64,000 nt of DNA from Flavobacteriales bacterium (GTDB lineage: Bacteria > Bacteroidota > Bacteroidia > Flavobacteriales_E > Vicingaceae). Both the position numbers and the translations under genes were made by a program. Numbering within the stretch: the first letter of the stretch is position 1; every line of letters begins with the position of its first letter. The stretch is from contig JAGQZT010000107.1 in the NCBI GenBank assembly GCA_020435335.1, positions 4,715-68,714 of the forward strand, in the 5' to 3' direction. Below are positions 4,410-64,000 of the stretch, piece after piece. Below the pieces are notes generated by a model. It was not told the DNA's origin, made no database searches, and saw only the letters and a list, made by a program, of their open reading frames with translations.

Positions 4410-5288
4410 ATGAAAGTAGGTCACATCATCATAGGCGCAGGACGATCAGGAACCACCAGCTTGGTGGCTTACCTGAAACAGCATTCCGATGTCAATTTCT
4501 CGTCCATCAAAGAAGTGACTTATTTTTCGGTCGATGATCATTACCGCCGCGGGGAGGAATTTCTGCATTCCTTTTATTCCACCGATTCGGGATGCCTGGC
4601 GACTTCAGATACGTATTTGCTGATGAGCCGGGAGGCTCCCAAACGGATTCAGGCGTATAATCCGAAGATGAAACTGACGGTTATTCTCCGTGAACCCGGC
4701 GATCGCAGTTATTCCAATTACCATTTTTCCGTTAACCAGGGCTATATCGATCCTGATGTTTCATTCATACAAAGTGAAGCGAAAGAGCAAGAGATGTTAA
4801 AAACAGGAGATGTTATCGCTCAGAATAACCATGGGAACTTCTATGGTAGTCTCTACCACAAGCACCTTGCTTATTGGTTGCAATATTTCGATCGAAAGCA
4901 ACTTTTTATTTGTACCACCAAACAGCTAAAAGAAGATCCGGAAGGGCTGATGCTGGCTTATTTCCGGTTTTTAGGGTTGTCGCCGATAGAACCGGAGCCG
5001 TTGGAAGCTCAGCATGCAGCTGCTGCGGTTAAGAGTAAACGACTCAACCGTTTTCTGGTTAATCGTGACCACTGGCTGAGAAGAGTTGTTCGAAAACCCT
5101 TACAGATCGGGTTTGTGCGAAGAGCTGTAATCGGCAGCAATGTAGTAGACAAGATCAAGGCCAAAAACCGCGAGGAATTGTCCTATCCTCCCATGACGAA
5201 AGAAGAGCGTCAGTTTTGCAACGATTATTTTAAGGCTGATCTGGCCGCTTTAAAGCAAGATTTCGGAATCGAATTCAATGGACATTAA
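4410..5288 (+). CDS. Sulfotransferase family protein
   Basis: Has the PAPS 5'-phosphosulfate-binding loop GAGRSGTTSL and a 3'-phosphate motif region REPGDRSYS. The ATG at 4410 is preferred over the TTG at 4401. Confidence 0.75.
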   Translation: MKVGHIIIGAGRSGTTSLVAYLKQHSDVNFSSIKEVTYFSVDDHYRRGEEFLHSFYSTDSGCLATSDTYLLMSREAPKRIQAYNPKMKLTVILREPGDRSYSNYHFSVNQGYIDPDVSFIQSEAKEQEMLKTGDVIAQNNHGNFYGSLYHKHLAYWLQYFDRKQLFICTTKQLKEDPEGLMLAYFRFLGLSPIEPEPLEAQHAAAAVKSKRLNRFLVNRDHWLRRVVRKPLQIGFVRRAVIGSNVVDKIKAKNREELSYPPMTKEERQFCNDYFKADLAALKQDFGIEFNGH

Positions 5289-15485: not shown

Positions 15486-15563
15486 TTTTTTGTTGTAAAA
15501 GTGGGTTTTCAACTAAGAGTCAATCTCCCCTCAATAACCCTTTCGAAATCGCCCAAGATATAT

Positions 15564-15571
15564 TACCTTTG
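15564..15571 (+). promoter_or_regulatory. -7 promoter box TACCTTTG
   Basis: TAnnTTTG match 21 nt upstream of the ffh ATG. Confidence 0.5.
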
Positions 15572-15591
15572 AACCTCTTAATGAAAAAGAT

Positions 15592-16923
15592 ATGTTCGAT
15601 AGTTTAAGTGATAAGTTAGAACGGGCCTTTAAGGTCTTAAAAGGACAAGGACAGGTAACCGAGATCAACGTTGCCGAAACAGTTAAAGAGATTCGCCGGG
15701 CATTGCTTGATGCCGATGTGAGTTACAAAGTAGCCAAACAGTTTACCGACACGGTAAAAGACAAGGCCATGGGCGCCAATGTAATCAACGCCATTTCGCC
15801 GAATCAGCTGATGGTGAAGATCACACACGATGAGCTGGCAACGTTGATGGGCGGCGGTGCTTCCGAGATCAACATCAAGGGAAGTCCGGCCATCATCCTG
15901 ATTGCGGGTCTGCAAGGTTCGGGTAAGACCACCTTCTCCGGAAAACTGGCCAATCACCTCAAAAATAAAAAAGGAAAGAAACCACTCCTCGTGGCAGGCG
16001 ACGTGTACCGTCCGGCTGCGATCGACCAGCTGCATGTGCTGGGTGAACAGATCGGAGTGGATGTGTGGAGCGATAAGGAAAATAAAAATCCGGTCGACAT
16101 CGCTAAGAAAGCGATCAATGAAGCCAAATCCAAAGGCCACAATGTAGTCATCATCGATACCGCCGGACGTCTGGCGGTCGACCAACAAATGATGGACGAG
16201 ATCGAAGCAGTGAAGAAAGCCGTGAATCCTTCGGAAATCTTGTTTGTGGTGGATTCCATGACCGGTCAGGATGCCGTTAACACGGCTAAGGCCTTCAACG
16301 ACCGGCTTGATTTTGACGGAGTCGTACTGACCAAACTGGATGGTGATACCCGGGGTGGTGCGGCGCTGTCTATTCGAACGGTGGTGGATAAACCGATCAA
16401 GTTCATCGGAACCGGCGAGAAAATGGAAGCACTCGATGTGTTCCATCCCGACCGGATGGCCGACCGGATCCTCGGCATGGGTGACGTGGTCAGTCTGGTG
16501 GAACGTGCTCAGGAACAATACGATGAGGAAGAAGCTCGTAAATTACAGAAGAAGATCGCCAAGAACCAGTTCGATTTCAACGATTTTATGAGTCAGATCA
16601 ATCAGATCAAGAAAATGGGGAACGTGAAAGACCTCGTAGGGATGATCCCGGGAGTAGGAAAGGCGATGAAGGGCGTAGACATCGATGACGATGCTTTTAA
16701 AGGTATTGAGGCCATCATTCACTCGATGACTCCTTACGAAAGAGAGAATCCGAAAGTGCTGAACGGTAGCCGAAGAAAACGTATTGCAGACGGAAGCGGA
16801 ACATCCATTCAGGATGTAAATAAGCTCTTGAAACAATTCGATCAGACCAGCAAAATGATGCGCCTGATGGGTGATAAGAAAAAAATGGCGCAGCTGATGC
16901 GCAACATGCCGAAGCAACGCTAG
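15592..16923 (+). CDS. ffh: Signal recognition particle protein Ffh
   Basis: NG domain motifs GLQGSGKTT, DTAGR and TKLDGD, followed by a Met-rich M domain. Confidence 0.97.
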   Translation: MFDSLSDKLERAFKVLKGQGQVTEINVAETVKEIRRALLDADVSYKVAKQFTDTVKDKAMGANVINAISPNQLMVKITHDELATLMGGGASEINIKGSPAIILIAGLQGSGKTTFSGKLANHLKNKKGKKPLLVAGDVYRPAAIDQLHVLGEQIGVDVWSDKENKNPVDIAKKAINEAKSKGHNVVIIDTAGRLAVDQQMMDEIEAVKKAVNPSEILFVVDSMTGQDAVNTAKAFNDRLDFDGVVLTKLDGDTRGGAALSIRTVVDKPIKFIGTGEKMEALDVFHPDRMADRILGMGDVVSLVERAQEQYDEEEARKLQKKIAKNQFDFNDFMSQINQIKKMGNVKDLVGMIPGVGKAMKGVDIDDDAFKGIEAIIHSMTPYERENPKVLNGSRRKRIADGSGTSIQDVNKLLKQFDQTSKMMRLMGDKKKMAQLMRNMPKQR

Positions 16924-54480: not shown

Positions 54481-55131
54481 CTATAGTTTAGTAAAAGTCA
54501 CCTTCGCAAAAACAGGTTTTACCGTAACACCATTGCCAAGCGGTGTGTCAACAAACAGGGTGATGGGTTGAGGTGGTGTAGATACGCTGTTGGCCGATGT
54601 AAATGTGGTTCCATCATCGGTACCGGCATCGTATACATAGGCATTAACGGTTTTTTTGTCTACGAACAGTTCGTTTTCAAAGAGGTTGACGCTGACCGCT
54701 GCAACGTACCAGTCGGGGCTCGGGGCGACCATCGTGCATAAACTGATCCGGGGATGGTCTATGCTTACGTCAATGTCGATCGATAACTCACCGGTTCCGG
54801 TGCTTAAGCTTTCACCGATTACCGGCGTGTAACCCATTTCTTCGATCTCATTGTCTAGCGGAGAGGTCTGCCCTCGTTCGGCCATGTCTTTGATGCCTGT
54901 GGTGGCATAGGTGCCCCGTTTCATCAGGGTGTCATTCGGGCCATGACTCCAGCCGATCAGCTTGGAGAAATGCGCATTTGCCGGATAGCTGGTCGGGAAA
55001 TCGGTCGAATTCCAGTAAAAAGTTACCGTAGCCGTATAGCTTGCATAAAACCGGCCCTCACTTTCTTCCTTTTTACAGGCGGTAAATAGCAGGCTGATGA
55101 TGAATAAGATCGTAAGTTGTTTCATAACCAT
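54481..55131 (-). CDS. Spondin_N domain lipoprotein
   Basis: Lipobox LFTAC. Motifs AHFSKLIGWSHGPN and APSPDWYVAAV match the F-spondin N-terminal domain signature. Confidence 0.7.
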   Translation of the reverse strand: MVMKQLTILFIISLLFTACKKEESEGRFYASYTATVTFYWNSTDFPTSYPANAHFSKLIGWSHGPNDTLMKRGTYATTGIKDMAERGQTSPLDNEIEEMGYTPVIGESLSTGTGELSIDIDVSIDHPRISLCTMVAPSPDWYVAAVSVNLFENELFVDKKTVNAYVYDAGTDDGTTFTSANSVSTPPQPITLFVDTPLGNGVTVKPVFAKVTFTKL

Positions 55132-55136
55132 TCCAT

Positions 55137-56402
55137 TTAATAGATCCGGCCGCTTCGCCAGCTGTCAACTGCCCTGAACCAGGTATTTTTGAATATGGGA
55201 GAGCGGCTGAGCTGGTAATCGTTTCCGGAAACCGGATTTTCTACTTTGTGAAACACGAAGCTGATGGACATCATGTTGTTCTCTTCACCGTAAATCCAGT
55301 TTTCATAATCTTTGTTCTTGTAAACCACATTGGGCGATCCGAAAATGATGTAGATGATTCCGCGGTCGGTTTTCCAGCCTTCCAGGTAGGATGTGAAGTA
55401 GTTGTTGGCGCTTTCCACACGGGTGTAATATTCCCGGATCATGGTCTTGGCCCGTTCGGAACTTCCGGCGATGCTGATCCAGAATTTATCTACGGCGAGT
55501 TTCGTGTTCTCACTTTCCATCAGCTGGTCGTACTCTTTTTTGGTGGTGATGTAGCGCATGGGACCGATCATGGCTTCGGGAGTTTTGATTTCCGGAAAAT
55601 AGGGCTGAAAATTAAAGAAGGTCGTTCCGCTTTTATTGTCCTCCGTATGCTGGAAATGGTAAAGCCCTTCTTCTCCAACCCGGTAAGTAAGAGTGTTGGT
55701 TGAATCGAATTCGAGGGTTTCCGTATTGACGGGCTTAAACACCAGGGGCTCTTCCTGTCCGTCTTCATTTACCGAAAACGGTGGCTTGGCGATAGGGAGG
55801 TCGGTGCTGTAGCGTTTCAGGAGGATGTTGTTGGCAGCATTTCGCTCGTTTTTTGTGAGGTAGATCAGGTCATTCTGATTGAAGTAATTTTCAAAGACCA
55901 CATTCTTGTTCGAATCCAGTAATAAATAATTCTGAACACTGTACAGGTTGGTTCGGGTAATGACGATCCTGTTTTTAATGTAATGGTCGCGTGAGATGTC
56001 ATTCACGGTGATCAGGAGGTCATAAACCTTGTTGGTTTTGGTTTGCAGGTTGATGGTTCCGTAGAGGTGTTTTTTTTGCTTGTTGTTTCCGAAATCGGTA
56101 AAGCTGATGGATGCACTGTCGAGCAGGCTTTCATCCGCTTTGTCGATCAGCTCGTAGTGGATCAGGATATTAGCGCTATAGGTGCTGTCGTTTCGTTTCT
56201 TCGTGTACAGGATGTTGGACGAGTTGAGCCTGAAGTGCAATTCCGTTAAGGTGTCGTTTTTATGGAATACGCGATATTGCGGATTGATGAGGTTGAGTCC
56301 GGGCATATAGATTCCGGCCACGTTGTTGTTGCTGGCCGTGTTCTTCGGTGCGGAACAGGCGTAGGCCAGAATTAGCCCAGCGAACAGCAATAATATGTTC
56401 AT
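55137..56402 (-). CDS. GWxTD domain-containing lipoprotein
   Basis: Starts MNILLLFAGLILAYAC (lipobox) at 56402. Has the GWKTD motif followed by RGIIYIIFGSPNVVYK. Confidence 0.8.
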   Translation of the reverse strand: MNILLLFAGLILAYACSAPKNTASNNNVAGIYMPGLNLINPQYRVFHKNDTLTELHFRLNSSNILYTKKRNDSTYSANILIHYELIDKADESLLDSASISFTDFGNNKQKKHLYGTINLQTKTNKVYDLLITVNDISRDHYIKNRIVITRTNLYSVQNYLLLDSNKNVVFENYFNQNDLIYLTKNERNAANNILLKRYSTDLPIAKPPFSVNEDGQEEPLVFKPVNTETLEFDSTNTLTYRVGEEGLYHFQHTEDNKSGTTFFNFQPYFPEIKTPEAMIGPMRYITTKKEYDQLMESENTKLAVDKFWISIAGSSERAKTMIREYYTRVESANNYFTSYLEGWKTDRGIIYIIFGSPNVVYKNKDYENWIYGEENNMMSISFVFHKVENPVSGNDYQLSRSPIFKNTWFRAVDSWRSGRIY

Positions 56403-59256: not shown

Positions 59257-59388
59257 AGCACGAATTTAGTCATAGTGCTTTTCGTTTTTTGTTAAAAGAA
59301 GTTAACTTTTTAACGCTCTGTTCTTTAAAACCTCGAAATGAACAGGTATTAAAAAAATAATTTATTTTCCCACAACTAAGCAAGTCTT

Positions 59389-59712
59389 ATGGAACAATTA
59401 AAAACAAAAGAAAAAGTCCTTAAAGAAGGCACTCAGCTGATAACATCCTTTAATAGCTTTTGCGGCACTTATAAAGATTTCATTAAAGGTGTTGCTATAT
59501 TCAAAAGAAAATCCATATTCGGAGTGAATGTTTTAACTTCTACTAACCTTAGTCAGGAAGGGGAAAACCACCGACGAAACATCGCCAGCGATTTTAACAG
59601 GTTTAATTCTAAATATTCTGAACTAATAGATGGATTTTTCATAGACAAAACAAATAAAGGTTTTGAAATAGTTATAGTATATTGTGCTGAAAGGTTATAC
59701 AACCTCATATGA
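59389..59712 (+). CDS. Hypothetical 107-aa protein (island gene)
   Basis: ORF in the low-GC island. I recognise no family. Its 3' end overlaps the convergent 70-aa ORF by 18 nt. Confidence 0.4.
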   Translation: MEQLKTKEKVLKEGTQLITSFNSFCGTYKDFIKGVAIFKRKSIFGVNVLTSTNLSQEGENHRRNIASDFNRFNSKYSELIDGFFIDKTNKGFEIVIVYCAERLYNLI

Positions 59713-59907
59713 ACTGTTGAACATTTCAATTTCACAATTTATAGACTCCACAATCAAATTATCCACTGTTCGTTGTAAAGACACATGAACCTCATCACCA
59801 ACATTAGATACTAAAATAATATTATAAATTTGCTGAGGGTACATGTTCTTTCGCCTAGCCTGTTTCCCTTGTAAATTGATGTATTTGTCTAATTTTTTCT
59901 TATCCAT
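59695..59907 (-). CDS. Hypothetical 70-aa protein, coupled to the ATPase-methyltransferase gene
   Basis: Its ATG lies 3 nt after the TAA of the upstream 641-aa gene (TAA GAT ATG). I recognise no motif. Confidence 0.45.
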   Translation of the reverse strand: MDKKKLDKYINLQGKQARRKNMYPQQIYNIILVSNVGDEVHVSLQRTVDNLIVESINCEIEMFNSSYEVV

Positions 59908-59910
59908 ATC

Positions 59911-61836
59911 TTATCTTATTTCTGATAAACATAATTCAGCATTAGCATACTGCTGAACCCAAAAACCATGTTGCTTACCGTTTTTGTAATTTTTCTCTTT
60001 ACTTCTGATTTCTTTGATTTTTCTTTGGGCTTTATCCTTAATTGAATTTAGAGCTTTTACTTTATTATCGTGAGAAATTCTAGTCAAACATTGAGTGGGA
60101 ATTAGATGTGTTTTTAATCTACCTTCTCCTCTTGGATCACTTACTTCGAAACCTAAGTCCTCCTCCTTAACATTAAACAATTCCTTTAATTCGGGAGTAT
60201 CTAACACTAAAAATCCATTTTGATAAGCTTTTTCACCTGTAGGTATAAGATGATCTTCCACCAGTATTAGAAACCCGTCATCCGAAAGAATTTTATTAAT
60301 GAATCCACCTGATTTAAAAAGAGTCAACCAATCCTTAGGGTCTATTTCATGTAACACATTACACATGATAATCGCCTGAAATGATTTTTGATCATACTTG
60401 GCTAACAAATCATCTTCTGAATTAAAATACCTATCTAAGCTATCACCGTAAGCAGAAGCTATAGCATTCTCACATTTTTCTTTATCCTTATTATCAGGAT
60501 CAAACGCAATATAATCTAGTTGCTTTATTAACTTGTCGTGATTGGAAACATCCTGTTCGTTTAAGTTTGAAATAATCCTACCCTTACCCGCCCCAAAATC
60601 TAATACCCTGATCTTATCATTTTGAGATATATCTAGCAAGCTCTGTCTAATTTGGAGAGATTGAGGATCGGACGAACCTGTTTCCACCGTAGGAGGAGAA
60701 AAAAGACATTCAAATGCATATCTAGTAGACGCAAATTGAGATGGAAGACTGATGAAGTCCCTTAATTTGTCAATTTGCTCCTCATCTCCCAACAAACTAT
60801 GTAGCACCTTTTCTGGAATTTTACCCGCATGTTTTATGTTACCATTTTCAACAAACCAGATCATAGATGGATCAAAGTGTGAAAGTATCGGAATAGAATG
60901 TGTTGAAATCCAAATTTGTCCATCTTTTACTACATCTCTAATGGCATCAATCATTTCAATAACAGCCTGTGGGTGAAGATGGTTTTCTGGCTCATCCATA
61001 AACAATATCATTTCATCAAGTTGGACACCCTGACTATACAAGGCAACGCAAAACTGTAATAAAACATTCTGACCAGCGGATAATCTTGCTAGTCCTAACG
61101 GGAAATCAAATAGCGTTGCATCTCCTTCGATCGTTCTTCCTATTTCTGTTTTGAGAAAAGTTTTAATTAAACTGTTTAACTCATCAAATTCCCTTATCGC
61201 TCTATTTTTAACCTCATCTTCTTGTGTTGATTCTGGATGGGTTGCTTCCCACTTTAAATTTTGTAGTTGTTGAATTTTTGATAATGAGCTTGCTGCTAGA
61301 TTAGATATACCAATGTTTTGAGTTGCAGTTGCGTGCTGGTTAATCATGTTTTTCGTAAGATTAGTTGGATCCGTCAACTTTGCATTTAAAGGGACAAATT
61401 TTACTATTTGATAACGATCCCCTAGCTCATACGTCACAATTTTGTTCCAATTAATGTGAGCTTTATTATCTATAATTTCTTGCTGATGATATTTTATATC
61501 TTTCTCCCCCTCCTTTATTAATGTATTATAATATGCAACCTCATTATGAAGATTATCTTTTCTGGTTAATCTCTTCTTATAGCTAGTAATTGTTTTTGTA
61601 AGATTATCTATTGCTGTTTTAGATACTTTTATTTCTTTTTCACAATTTAATACATTTTGTTTTTTGGGTTTATGTTTAATAGTTGAAGATATCTTGTCTA
61701 ATATCCTAGATTTTCCACTACCGTTTTTGCCTGCTAATAGGACTACTTGCTGTAATCTATCCATTTTTATCTCTCCCAATCCATCTTCGGTTGCAGGATT
61801 TGTGTTTTTCAGAATATTAACTGATTTTATTCTCAT
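59911..61836 (-). CDS. AAA_21/ABC-type ATPase fused to a class I SAM-dependent methyltransferase domain
   Basis: Walker A GKNGSGKS (aa 36-43), a coiled-coil insert, signature-like LSAGQ (aa 252-256), Walker B/D-loop ILFMDEPENHLHP (aa 277-289) and H-loop STHS. The MTase part has motif I VLDFGAGKG (aa 411-419), then YIAFD, IIMCNVLHEI and GFLILVED. Confidence 0.8.
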   Translation of the reverse strand: MRIKSVNILKNTNPATEDGLGEIKMDRLQQVVLLAGKNGSGKSRILDKISSTIKHKPKKQNVLNCEKEIKVSKTAIDNLTKTITSYKKRLTRKDNLHNEVAYYNTLIKEGEKDIKYHQQEIIDNKAHINWNKIVTYELGDRYQIVKFVPLNAKLTDPTNLTKNMINQHATATQNIGISNLAASSLSKIQQLQNLKWEATHPESTQEDEVKNRAIREFDELNSLIKTFLKTEIGRTIEGDATLFDFPLGLARLSAGQNVLLQFCVALYSQGVQLDEMILFMDEPENHLHPQAVIEMIDAIRDVVKDGQIWISTHSIPILSHFDPSMIWFVENGNIKHAGKIPEKVLHSLLGDEEQIDKLRDFISLPSQFASTRYAFECLFSPPTVETGSSDPQSLQIRQSLLDISQNDKIRVLDFGAGKGRIISNLNEQDVSNHDKLIKQLDYIAFDPDNKDKEKCENAIASAYGDSLDRYFNSEDDLLAKYDQKSFQAIIMCNVLHEIDPKDWLTLFKSGGFINKILSDDGFLILVEDHLIPTGEKAYQNGFLVLDTPELKELFNVKEEDLGFEVSDPRGEGRLKTHLIPTQCLTRISHDNKVKALNSIKDKAQRKIKEIRSKEKNYKNGKQHGFWVQQYANAELCLSEIR

Positions 61837-61875
61837 GACTTAGTAATTAAAAAAACCAATGTACTAAAAACGAAG

Positions 61876-61883
61876 TATATTTG
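61876..61883 (+). promoter_or_regulatory. -7 promoter box TATATTTG for the SIR2-like gene
   Basis: TAnnTTTG match 17 nt upstream of ATG 61900, inside the 63-bp divergent intergenic region. Confidence 0.5.
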
Positions 61884-61899
61884 ATGAAAACCATCGAAA

Positions 61900-62913
61900 A
61901 TGGCAAACATCACATACTATATTGGAGCAGGCGCAAGTTGTAATTCTCTTCCTCTAGCAAAGGATATGCATCAAAGATTAATTGAATTCAAAGAGTATAT
62001 TATTTACTTAATTGATGAGAAAGGACTGAATAATCATTTTTCCAATTCTTACTTAACGGAACTTGATAAAATAATTCGACTTGTGTTTGAAAATGGAACC
62101 ATTGACACCTGTGCTAGGACAATGTACCTAAATGGAAGACAATCAATGGATTTAGTAAGGTTAAAGTCAATATTAAGTGGATATATCTTGTTTGAACAAA
62201 CAAGAAAAGACGAAGGATTTTTAACGAATAAAGACTCTGGGAAACAAGATCACCACAATAGAGTGATCGATCAAAGATATCCTGCGTTTATTACAAATCA
62301 AATTGATGGAAATTCAAGAAAACTGAAAGATAATATTAAAATCATATCTTGGAATTATGATTCCCAGTTCGAGCTATCTTATTCCAATGTTGTAGGTTGT
62401 CCCATTGATATGGCTCTCAATCAACTCAACGTATATCCTTCTCCATATACAAATACTGATGAAAATTATAGCATCATTAAGTTGAATGGAACAGCAGGAC
62501 TGACAGATGAACACAACAGAGTTTCGGCTGAATACTTAAGCATACTCGAATTTGATCCACTATCATCCATGAATTTCATTATCGATCTTCTTAAATCAAA
62601 TAACCAGAGAAATTACGTACCAAATCAATTGTTTTTTGCTTGGGAAGATTATCACATCCCAAAGAATTCGAAAGAATTAGCAAAAAAGATTATTTCGGAA
62701 ACAGATATTCTTATCGCAATAGGCTATTCATTTCCAGATTATAACCTTGAAGTGGATAGGTATATTTTTGATGGAAATAGGATTGAAAAAATGTATTATC
62801 AAGTTCCACCCCAATATTTTGAGGATTTAAAGCTAAATATTGCCAAAGTAAATAGTGATTTGTTACAAGTGTGCGAAAATATTTCCAGACCCGAGTTTTT
62901 AATACTGAGTTAA
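61900..62913 (+). CDS. SIR2-like / AbiH-like (DHS-like NAD-binding fold) protein
   Basis: Motifs are YIGAGASCNSLPL (GAGxS), IISWNYD (TNYD-like, N152), IIKLNGT at the position of the KLHG catalytic His (N196), and ILIAIGYSFPDYNLEVDRYIF (the GYS..D motif). Confidence 0.6.
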   Translation: MANITYYIGAGASCNSLPLAKDMHQRLIEFKEYIIYLIDEKGLNNHFSNSYLTELDKIIRLVFENGTIDTCARTMYLNGRQSMDLVRLKSILSGYILFEQTRKDEGFLTNKDSGKQDHHNRVIDQRYPAFITNQIDGNSRKLKDNIKIISWNYDSQFELSYSNVVGCPIDMALNQLNVYPSPYTNTDENYSIIKLNGTAGLTDEHNRVSAEYLSILEFDPLSSMNFIIDLLKSNNQRNYVPNQLFFAWEDYHIPKNSKELAKKIISETDILIAIGYSFPDYNLEVDRYIFDGNRIEKMYYQVPPQYFEDLKLNIAKVNSDLLQVCENISRPEFLILS

Positions 62914-62926
62914 CTGTGTTTATAAA

Positions 62927-63145
62927 TCATTTAATATCGATCAATTCCACCAAACTAACCTCTAAACATTTCGCAAGTTTTCTCAGCATGTTAATGGAAC
63001 TATTTACCCTCCCACTTTCAATCCGTCTCAATGATGAATCATCGATCTTCATCCTGTAGGCTAATTCGGATTGGGTTAGCTTTTTCTTCTGCCTAACCTC
63101 TTTTATTCTCTTCCCTAGTTTTTGTAGGTATTCCTCATCCTTCAT
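62927..63145 (-). CDS. XRE-family helix-turn-helix transcriptional regulator
   Basis: 72 aa with KKLTQSELAYRMKIDDSSLRRIESGRVNSSINMLRKLAKCL, a classic Cro/CI HTH. Confidence 0.85.
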   Translation of the reverse strand: MKDEEYLQKLGKRIKEVRQKKKLTQSELAYRMKIDDSSLRRIESGRVNSSINMLRKLAKCLEVSLVELIDIK

Positions 63146-63176
63146 TCCCTAAAAGTGAAACTTATTTCAAAAAAAT

Positions 63177-63198
63177 AACAGGGCATATATGCTCTGTT
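63177..63198. promoter_or_regulatory. 22-bp near-perfect palindrome, candidate XRE operator
   Basis: aacagGgcatatatgcTctgtt, with one mismatched pair. Lies in the divergent region between the XRE gene and the lipoprotein gene. Confidence 0.45.
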
Positions 63199-63244
63199 AG
63201 GTAAAATTTAATACCTTAGCAGGGAATCAATAAAAACTAAAAAA

Positions 63245-63763
63245 ATGAAATCACTTCGAACCTTATCGATGCTTGTAATACTCGCAAGCATATTAGTAAC
63301 TGGATGTAAAAAAGAAGAGTATCAACCAAAAGGTGATTATCAACCCGCGGGAAATTATGTTACTTCTGGAACAAACAACAATACAGTCAAGAACTATGAC
63401 ATAACCGTTAACACTTGGGAATGGACATTTGACAACACGTACCAAAGACATTATTACAGGTACGGAGTGGCTGCGCACTACAACTCACTAGTAGTATGTT
63501 ATGTGATTTCTGGAAGCGGAAAACAAATCATGCCATACTATGAAGGTGTTTCGCAGCAGGGCTATGATTTCGCAAACAACCTATTCCAAACATGGCAGTA
63601 TATTGAGTTACAATACACGAACTACAATTCTCCTAGTAGCGCGCCAAGTAGTGCCAGATATTTTTACATCGTAGTTGTTCCTCCATCTGCCAGAGAAGCG
63701 CATCCCAACTTGGATTATTCCGACTTAAATCAAGTTAAAAGTACATTTAACCTGAAGGACTAG
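63245..63763 (+). CDS. Hypothetical lipoprotein
   Basis: Signal peptide with lipobox LVTGC. I recognise no family. Confidence 0.55.
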   Translation: MKSLRTLSMLVILASILVTGCKKEEYQPKGDYQPAGNYVTSGTNNNTVKNYDITVNTWEWTFDNTYQRHYYRYGVAAHYNSLVVCYVISGSGKQIMPYYEGVSQQGYDFANNLFQTWQYIELQYTNYNSPSSAPSSARYFYIVVVPPSAREAHPNLDYSDLNQVKSTFNLKD

Positions 63764-63936
63764 TGAATGAGATAACAGTAGTATTTGACGAGTTTCTAAA
63801 ACAATGCTCCCGAGAGGACTTGGAATTTATCGTTTCAAATGAAGTCAGTAATGAAGAGATTATTACTCTGTTGAAGAAAAAGGAAGCAGAGGTGAAACAG
63901 AACATTCTTGAAAACTTTGGGATTACGATCAGTTAG
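63763..63936 (+). CDS. Possible 57-aa acidic protein (GTG start overlapping the preceding stop)
   Basis: Translated by hand: VNEITVVFDEFLKQCSREDLEFIVSNEVSNEEIITLLKKKEAEVKQNILENFGITIS. It is followed by a terminator. Confidence 0.25.
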   Translation: MNEITVVFDEFLKQCSREDLEFIVSNEVSNEEIITLLKKKEAEVKQNILENFGITIS

Positions 63937-63963
63937 CATCAAATCACTCCTCATGCCTTTCAC

Positions 63964-63989
63964 AAATCAGCCTCATTGGCTGATTTTTT
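63964..63989 (+). terminator. Rho-independent terminator
   Basis: Stem aatcagcc / ggctgatt followed by tttttt. Confidence 0.7.
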
Positions 63990-64000
63990 ATTTAGATTTG

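Follow-up and report, generated by a model that had tools for sequence, protein, structure and literature searches.

We analysed a stretch of 64,000 nucleotides (hereafter the window) from a Flavobacteriales bacterium (metagenome-assembled genome, assembly GCA_020435335.1, contig JAGQZT010000107.1 of 69,355 bp, positions 4,715 to 68,714 of the forward strand), which carries two large divergent genes near its right end. The product of the first gene has 641 amino acids (aa) and is a fusion of an ATP-binding cassette (ABC) ATPase with a class I methyltransferase predicted to bind S-adenosylmethionine (SAM). The product of the second gene has 337 aa and a SIR2-like fold. An initial annotation of this DNA had proposed that the two genes, together with a 70-aa open reading frame (ORF) and an XRE-family regulator, form a single defence module, in which the ATPase would be the sensor and the SIR2 protein an effector that hydrolyses nicotinamide adenine dinucleotide (NAD+). 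Here, we conclude, with a probability of roughly 0.7, that the 641-aa and 337-aa genes are independent, stand-alone candidate defence or accessory genes that are stacked in one genomic island.

The genomic association of the two genes was surveyed by searching family profiles against the six-frame ORFs of two sets of loci. The set of the 641-aa family comprises 79 genome loci from many phyla, each taken with flanks of up to 8 kb in both directions (960 kb of flanks in total), while the set of the 337-aa family comprises 80 metagenome loci with 477 kb of flanks. As a positive control, both genes were recovered in the window by the identical pipeline. The 337-family profile found no member in the flanks of the 641-family loci (0 of 79), even at E ≤ 10, and no ATPase-methyltransferase fusion was found near the 337-family genes (0 of 80). 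The 641-family profile gave a single match in the second set, at locus L146. This match covers the P-loop and Walker B regions only, and it was rejected as a case of co-occurrence, being a generic ATPase. When the four genes on each side were clustered, no conserved neighbour was common to more than 4 loci in either family. Since the partner gene is present at none of the loci in either set, homologues of the two genes do not co-occur. The initial annotation had itself named this outcome as one that would refute its proposal, and the coupled ATPase-methyltransferase and SIR2-like module is rejected.

What speaks for that module is the arrangement of the large genes, which diverge over only 63 bp within the same island of low guanine-plus-cytosine (GC) content, and a conceptual parallel with SIR2-HerA, which also joins an ATPase and a SIR2 protein. 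Besides the lack of co-occurrence, there is no conservation of the 70-aa ORF, the XRE gene and the 337-aa gene are convergent, XRE genes do not recur beside either family, and both families keep a fixed stand-alone architecture in unrelated contexts. A single module of sensor, effector and regulator is thus extremely improbable. We also considered a pairing of the 641-aa and 337-aa genes that is specific to this lineage, found in this genome only and invisible to comparative genomics. Such a pairing would fit the tight divergent arrangement and the fact that the nearest database relatives are only 56% (641 aa) and 55% (337 aa) identical. However, no positive evidence speaks for it, unrelated systems are normally packed close together in accessory islands, and elsewhere either family works, or at any rate persists, by itself. 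We regard such a pairing as very unlikely. In the reading of two independent genes, the segment at 59.3-64 kb would be a horizontally acquired, low-GC accessory island with at least two stand-alone genes, and the back-to-back placement of these genes would reflect island packing and not function.

The 641-aa protein contains the motifs GKNGSGKS, LSAGQ, DEPENHLHP, STHS and LDFGAGKG in its translation, and the family keeps them without variation. The first half of the protein belongs to the ABC ATPases of the OLD/PtuA/AriA type (AAA_15/AAA_21), with intact motifs and scores that exceed the Pfam cut-offs. AAA_15 was matched at 4.8e-13 with 49.9 bits (cut-off 32.1), and AAA_21 at 1.9e-12 with 48.3 bits (cut-off 27). 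The Walker A motif corresponds to segment G36-K42 and the signature to S253-Q256. The Walker B residues D281-E282 are followed by PENHLHP, and the H-loop consists of T312-H313-S314. A helical insert, approximately residues 55-250, lies within this half. Residues K42, S253, G255, Q256, D281, E282 and H313 are invariant in the 21 sequences compared. The PADLOC matches of the protein, which are all confined to the ATPase half, are to AbiLi (2.6e-19), AriA (1.2e-17), PtuA (2.4e-15) and GajA (3.5e-10), and also to HEC-01A and mad3. By sequence, the nearest solved relatives of this half are the PtuA ATPases of retrons Ec83 and Ec78. Pfam and PADLOC are therefore in agreement with the initial assignment of a PtuA/AriA/AbiLi-like ABC ATPase.

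The 641-aa protein shares its DEPENHLHP Walker B region and helical insert with PtuA of Septu, AriA of PARIS, AbiLi and GajA of Gabija. Unlike these systems, it has no nuclease partner or nuclease domain (HNH, TOPRIM or DUF4435). Neither PtuB (HNH), nor AriB or AbiLii (TOPRIM/DUF4435), nor GajB was found in the protein itself, in the segment 59.2-64 kb or recurrently at the 79 loci. A further difference is its C-terminus, which is a fused, non-DNA class I methyltransferase. The protein reaches no NCBIfam model. Membership in MADS was not found either, as NF047739 is matched with 46.4 bits over residues 274-326 only, when at least 420 over the full length is needed, and the mad genes are not in the window.

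The methyltransferase domain matches Methyltransf_23 (7.2e-8, 32.8 bits, cut-off 27), Methyltransf_12 (4.6e-6) and Methyltransf_25 in Pfam. Its motif I reads LDFGAGKGR, an acidic residue, D446, follows strand 2, and the segment CNVLHEIDP, which is conserved in the family, follows strand 4. Glycines G415, G417 and G419 are invariant, and D446 is found in at least 90% of the sequences. The C-terminal 306 residues were modelled with AlphaFold2 from 121 sequences (pLDDT, the predicted local distance difference test, 86.9). The model shows a linker of two helices, followed by a seven-stranded class I methyltransferase fold and by a two-helix tail. In the tail, N619, G620, H623, G624, Q628, Q629 and N632 are invariant. 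The best matches in the Protein Data Bank found by Foldseek are AprA MT2, KijD1, CurJ, RebM and TcaB9 (E of about 3e-6 to 1e-5), which are small-molecule C- and N-methyltransferases. A sequence search of solved structures with the methyltransferase half gave a single marginal match, 8bic.

The domain shares with AprA MT2, the CurJ C-methyltransferase, KijD1/TcaB9 and RebM a Rossmann-like fold of seven strands, a GxGxG motif I, the acidic residue after strand 2 and the NVLHE segment. It differs from them in being only 10-19% identical, with template modelling (TM) scores of 0.3-0.43, and in being fused to an ABC ATPase and to a unique, conserved two-helix tail. The 641-aa protein has no match to the Pfam families N6_Mtase, N6_N4_Mtase and DNA_methylase, and it lacks the DNA-methylase motif [SDN]PP[FYW], its sole PP being in SPPT. 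The initial description of a non-DNA-type methyltransferase is thus confirmed by Pfam and Foldseek. We conclude that the domain has the fold and motifs of a class I SAM-dependent methyltransferase and would bind SAM.

The family of the 641-aa protein is large, with more than 950 matches of about 640 aa. An exhaustive HMMER search with the C-terminal module recovered 915 clusters at 50% identity, and 381 of these reached E ≤ 1e-30. Among the best 150, the module is located at the C-terminus of proteins of 536-683 aa in 125, while the remainder look like fragments. Because of this placement, the ATPase-methyltransferase fusion is a fixed architecture and not the product of a promiscuous effector domain. 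The 79 genome loci come from Bacteroidota, Pseudomonadota, Campylobacterota, Planctomycetota, Bacillota, Fibrobacterota, Acidobacteriota and Verrucomicrobiota. The spread of the family is patchy, over at least 8 phyla at 35-55% identity. At 6 of the 79 loci (L002, L024, L034, L049, L054 and L069), the gene is split into two adjacent ORFs, of which frameshift, pseudogenisation or assembly error could be the cause. The closest homologue (P0001, 56% identity; L162:5635-9305) is flanked by a Pterin_4a (phhB-like) gene and a Biopterin_H (phhA-like) gene, as if it had been inserted into a pair of housekeeping genes. The next gene encodes a 125-aa Bflower_2 protein, which is unrelated to the 70-aa ORF of the window.

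The 337-aa protein contains the motifs GAGAS, WNYD, KLNG and GYSFPD in its translation. It has 110 relatives, which rise to 355 by profile search. The AlphaFold2 model, made from 110 sequences, has a pLDDT of 92.9 and a predicted TM-score of 0.92. The first Foldseek match of this model is the Escherichia coli SIR2 protein of SIR2-HerA (8sub; E 5.7e-7, TM-score 0.48, probability 1.00), followed by FAM118B (9r3e), ThsA (6lhx) and classical sirtuins with a probability of 0.99. Among viral structures, Foldseek gave only a weak match, to a giant-virus sirtuin. The window protein itself is without a Pfam match, and weak SIR2_2 matches were obtained for 11 of 25 family members. PADLOC SIR2 models matched 13 of the 25, with a best value of 3.6e-11. 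We are confident, on the basis of the model and its structural matches, that the protein belongs to the SIR2 superfamily, among the SIR2_2 and immune sirtuins. Of the SIR2_2/AbiH motif series noted in the initial annotation, the SIR2_2 part is retained through the Pfam matches and the AbiH part is not. Neither the window protein nor the 25 members had a match to PF14253 at E ≤ 1 or to PADLOC AbiH at E ≤ 0.01, and membership in AbiH was rejected. AbiH is presumably a single gene of about 340 aa with a motif series superficially similar to that of the 337-aa protein.

In 271 sequences of the 337-aa family, the near-invariant positions are the GAGAS loop, D69, D124, R126, N152-Y-D154, Q156, E158, W248, G275-x-S277, N282 and D286. 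Residues G9, G11 and S13 are conserved in at least 259 of 260 sequences, and N152 in 267 of 268. The KL-x-G motif, in which SIR2 enzymes carry the catalytic histidine, has an asparagine, N196, in all 267 sequences. The SIR2-like fold with a His-to-Asn replacement, as initially described, is therefore well supported. The placement of N196 at the position of the catalytic histidine follows from the order and spacing of the motifs and from its strand-NG-strand context, and the two residues are probably equivalent. An alignment of the family to Sir2Tm with hhalign matched only FAWE...IGYSF to VFFGE...LGSSL, with a probability of 0.9%, and is no proof of this equivalence. A profile search for a bridge from the family to histidine-containing SIR2 proteins returned only the same family, and searches of solved-structure sequences with 337-family profiles gave nothing useful.

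In SaSir2, the dyad of N226 and H287 is fully conserved and mutation of H287 abolishes the NADase activity (PMC11514289). FAM118B requires H206 and N163, and the catalytic histidine is essential in both ThsA and FAM118B (PMC12700824). The 337-aa family keeps the asparagine of this dyad and not the histidine, since N152 is retained while N196 probably stands at the histidine position. Regarding the initial proposal of a SIR2 effector that depletes NAD, the fold is thus upheld, while NAD depletion is uncertain as the catalytic histidine is missing.

Comparison with known SIR2 systems places the 337-aa protein close to several of them and within none. The SIR2 protein of SIR2-HerA (Nezha) is its best structural match. 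However, it differs from this system in the absence of HerA, in the asparagine that takes the place of H287 of SaSir2 and in its length, 337 aa against about 400. A HerA partner was sought and not found: the island of the window encodes no ATPase of the HerA/FtsK type, and HerA does not appear in the 25 Pfam families that are most frequent in 150 neighbour genes. With ThsA (Thoeris), DSR1/DSR2 and FAM118, the protein shares the SIR2 fold, the GAGxS loop and the conserved asparagine of the N/H dyad. Unlike them, it has no SLOG domain, large sensor domain or TIR partner, and the catalytic histidine is replaced. Thoeris in particular is not indicated, as the protein is a single SIR2-like domain without any other Pfam domain and no TIR gene lies nearby. 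No TIR or SLOG partner was seen for the family. Where the SIR2 NADase effectors ThsA, DSR, SIR2-HerA and SPARSA have their catalytic histidine, the 337-aa protein has KLNG. The initial statement that no named system accounts for either gene held in PADLOC and NCBIfam for the 641-aa protein and in PADLOC for the 337-aa family. In the literature, the coverage of which was incomplete, we found no description of an ATPase-methyltransferase defence fusion or of a SIR2 clade lacking the histidine.

The gene neighbourhoods of the two families were scanned for defence genes. The counts, which are raw and semi-quantitative, cover the 25 most frequent families per scan, each of 150 neighbour genes. In the 337-aa family, they include ResIII (7), HSDR_N (5), MmeI (3), DNA methylases, RloB and PLDc_2. 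HsdR/ResIII, SWI2_SNF2, AAA_21 with RloB, PLD nucleases and DUF4145 were also seen in its neighbourhoods. In the 641-aa family, the counts include ResIII (3), HSDR_N (2), GmrSD (2) and mad3 (3), so that some of its neighbours are defence genes of type I restriction-modification, GmrSD and MADS. On these counts, the enrichment of defence genes appears clear for the 337-aa family and weak for the 641-aa family.

Copies of the 337-aa family were also observed on mobile elements. Homologue P0125 (L163:958-17065, L164) adjoins an N6_Mtase gene, and the surrounding region, which resembles conjugative-element cargo, encodes ArdC, MPTase-PolyVal, Tae4, DUF2958 and a ResIII/DEAD helicase. In a genome of 4.86 Mb, homologue P0130 (L165:5668-9095) is the direct neighbour of a phage-type integrase and a Y2 transposase of the IS91 family. 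A hypothetical protein of Leptospira LE1-like phages shares 29% identity with the 337-aa protein over 89% of the length, and the copy of phage LbrZ_5399 is found at positions 54798-55832 of KF114879.1 (L161:4998-6032).

The immune functions that we infer for the two genes, and the mechanisms proposed for them, have to be weighed against several points. For both genes, the immune role is a prediction. Around the 641-aa family, defence genes are only modestly enriched, and Lon, methylmalonyl-CoA mutase and transporters are among its housekeeping neighbours. Moreover, a search of a phage collection found no member of the family, and one of a plasmid collection gave only a distant ATPase. In the 337-aa family, the proposed equivalence of N196 and the histidine comes from motif order, spacing and secondary structure. 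Furthermore, hydrolysis of NAD+ by this family is not assured, because it lacks the histidine that is essential in SaSir2, ThsA and FAM118B.

For the 641-aa protein, the main rival to an immune role is a non-immune accessory enzyme, that is, an ATP-regulated methyltransferase of RNA, protein or metabolites with a physiological or niche role that has spread horizontally. The many housekeeping neighbours and the lack of matches in phages and plasmids agree with such an enzyme, as do the resemblance of the methyltransferase to natural-product and small-molecule enzymes and the fixed, non-modular architecture. However, the ATPase is most similar to the defence ATPases AbiLi, AriA, PtuA, HEC-01A and mad3, the patchy distribution is accompanied by no conserved operon, and the island that holds the window copy is low in GC. 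In addition, the gene is disrupted at some loci (6 of 79), and some neighbours are restriction-modification, GmrSD or MADS genes. On balance, we consider a non-immune enzyme somewhat unlikely, and an immune role of the 641-aa protein plausible at slightly less than even odds. If the protein is immune, the analogy of Septu, PARIS and Gabija suggests that the ATPase and its helical insert would act as sensor or switch. The fused methyltransferase would be the output, and it would methylate a non-DNA target (RNA, protein or metabolite) when triggered.

For the 337-aa protein, the alternative is that it is not an NADase, and that it serves as a nucleotide-binding sensor or regulator or catalyses another reaction, such as ADP-ribosyl transfer or a reaction on another nucleotide substrate. 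The uniform replacement of the histidine by N196, the requirement for this histidine in characterised SIR2 NADases (PMC11514289, PMC12700824) and a set of invariant residues (D69, Q100, D124, R126, Q156, E158, W248, E249, N282 and D286), which suggest a remodelled but functional pocket, are in line with this alternative. Against it, the family retains the fold of SIR2 enzymes that use NAD+, together with their GAGxS loop and the asparagine of the dyad (N152), and it occurs in defence islands as NAD-depleting effectors do. We hold this alternative to be rather doubtful. We put an immune role of the 337-aa protein at somewhat above even odds. We suggest that this protein is a SIR2 immune effector or enzyme of one domain, whose catalytic centre is remodelled and which acts on NAD+ or on a related nucleotide. 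As an enzyme that binds or processes NAD+ through an altered centre, it would act alone, probably by self-assembly, as an effector of the abortive-infection type.

The genes, spacings and motifs given in the initial annotation are all present in the ORF map, the raw sequence and the translations, and the features of the locus are listed in Table 1. The claim of a low-GC accessory island is in agreement with the composition scan, in which the GC content falls from 0.48 at 58-59 kb to 0.32-0.36 across 59-64 kb. The left edge of the island adjoins a gene named SDR by NCBI, and the right edge is beyond the window. With regard to a tRNA integration site, zero tRNA genes were found within the window. 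The island goes on past the XRE gene with the predicted 172-aa lipoprotein and a 302-aa protein that has no Pfam match (63245-64000; L160:1944-2852). A search with the 172-aa gene for sequence further to the right led only to a contig of 3 kb. Elsewhere in the window, the ORF at 15538-16920 (plus strand) has a weak match to the 641-family profile (E 6.5e-4) and is presumably an unrelated ABC-type ATPase.

Table 1 Features of the locus, in window coordinates.
Feature	Position	Strand	Basis or remark
Low-GC accessory island	59257-64000		GC 0.32-0.37 against 0.45-0.48 in the flanks; composition, ORFs
107-aa ORF	59389-59712	+	NCBI KDD41_11105; coding status doubtful
70-aa ORF	59695-59907	-	ATG 3 nt past the stop codon of the 641-aa gene; no profile match
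641-aa ORF	59911-61836	-	ORF map and raw sequence; NCBI MCB0402624.1, named 'AAA family ATPase'
C-terminal two-helix tail of the 641-aa protein, residues ~586-641	59914-60081	-	Conservation, AlphaFold2 model
Class I SAM-methyltransferase domain (SAM binding predicted), residues ~397-585	60082-60648	-	Pfam, AlphaFold2 model, Foldseek, invariant residues
ATPase half, residues 1-335	60832-61836	-	Pfam, PADLOC, invariant columns
Divergent intergenic region between the 641-aa and 337-aa genes, 63 bp	61837-61899		Raw sequence
TATATTTG box	61876-61883	+	16 nt upstream of the ATG of the 337-aa gene
337-aa ORF	61900-62913	+	ORF map and raw sequence; NCBI KDD41_11115, hypothetical
72-aa XRE-family helix-turn-helix regulator	62927-63145	-	HTH_3 8.9e-14; 13 bp past the stop codon of the 337-aa gene
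24-bp palindrome TAACAGGGCATA/TATGCTCTGTTA	63176-63199		11 of 12 arm positions complementary; between the XRE and 172-aa genes
172-aa predicted lipoprotein	63245-63763	+	No family match; divergent from the XRE gene

Within the divergent intergenic region, a promoter box was examined for the 337-aa gene. The Bacteroidetes-type box TANNTTTG has 50 occurrences in the window, where 48.9 are expected from shuffled sequence, and at this chance-level frequency it was ruled out as statistical evidence of a -7 box. The box of the 337-aa gene is plausible because of its position and not because of statistical rarity. No comparable box was found for the minus-strand 641-aa gene in the 63-bp gap.

The two small ORFs at the left of the locus, of 70 and 107 aa, probably belong to neither system, and both may be spurious. 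They overlap by 18 nt on opposite strands and are singletons among about 15 billion proteins. The gene calls differ between sources: NCBI has the 107-aa ORF of the plus strand, while Logan/ENA has the 70-aa ORF of the minus strand. Neither product has a Pfam match, and neither ORF has a tblastn match in the 79 641-family loci. Downstream of 81 members of this family, no ORF conserved in any of six frames was found within 700 nt. The 70-aa ORF was therefore rejected as a conserved small partner, and its inclusion in the module did not hold, as no homologue of it lies downstream of any of the 81 members.

The XRE regulator is present beyond the 337-aa gene together with a palindromic site, as the initial annotation had reported. 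A role of this gene in the module was not confirmed, since it is convergent with the 337-aa gene and the palindrome lies in the promoter region that it shares with the plus-strand gene starting at 63245, and not with the 337-aa gene. XRE-like genes gave weak tblastn matches at only 3 of the 79 641-family loci, and neither family has the gene as a conserved partner. Most likely, the regulator controls itself and the divergent 172-aa gene. The palindrome is likely to be the XRE operator of this pair and not a site of the SIR2-like gene.

As a unit, the multi-gene system that had been claimed does not exist, and effort on a false module can be spared. What remains are two single-gene candidates that can be tested separately and are both easy to clone. 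The most far-reaching interpretation, which we consider unlikely, is as follows. The 641-aa family would be a new single-protein immune system, in which an ATPase sensor of the PARIS/Septu type directly controls a fused non-DNA methyltransferase that methylates RNA, protein or a metabolite or consumes SAM, in place of a nuclease or NADase. Separately, the 337-aa family would be an immune SIR2 clade without the histidine, with another catalytic mechanism or substrate. To our knowledge, methyltransferase effector chemistry is not known for the OLD/PARIS/Septu class of ATPases. The 641-aa fusion is widespread, with at least 381 clusters at 50% identity, and if it is immune, it would add a new effector chemistry to this class. 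The 337-aa clade has dispensed with a histidine thought to be essential for the cleavage of NAD+, which bears on the catalysis and the targets of SIR2 immune effectors.

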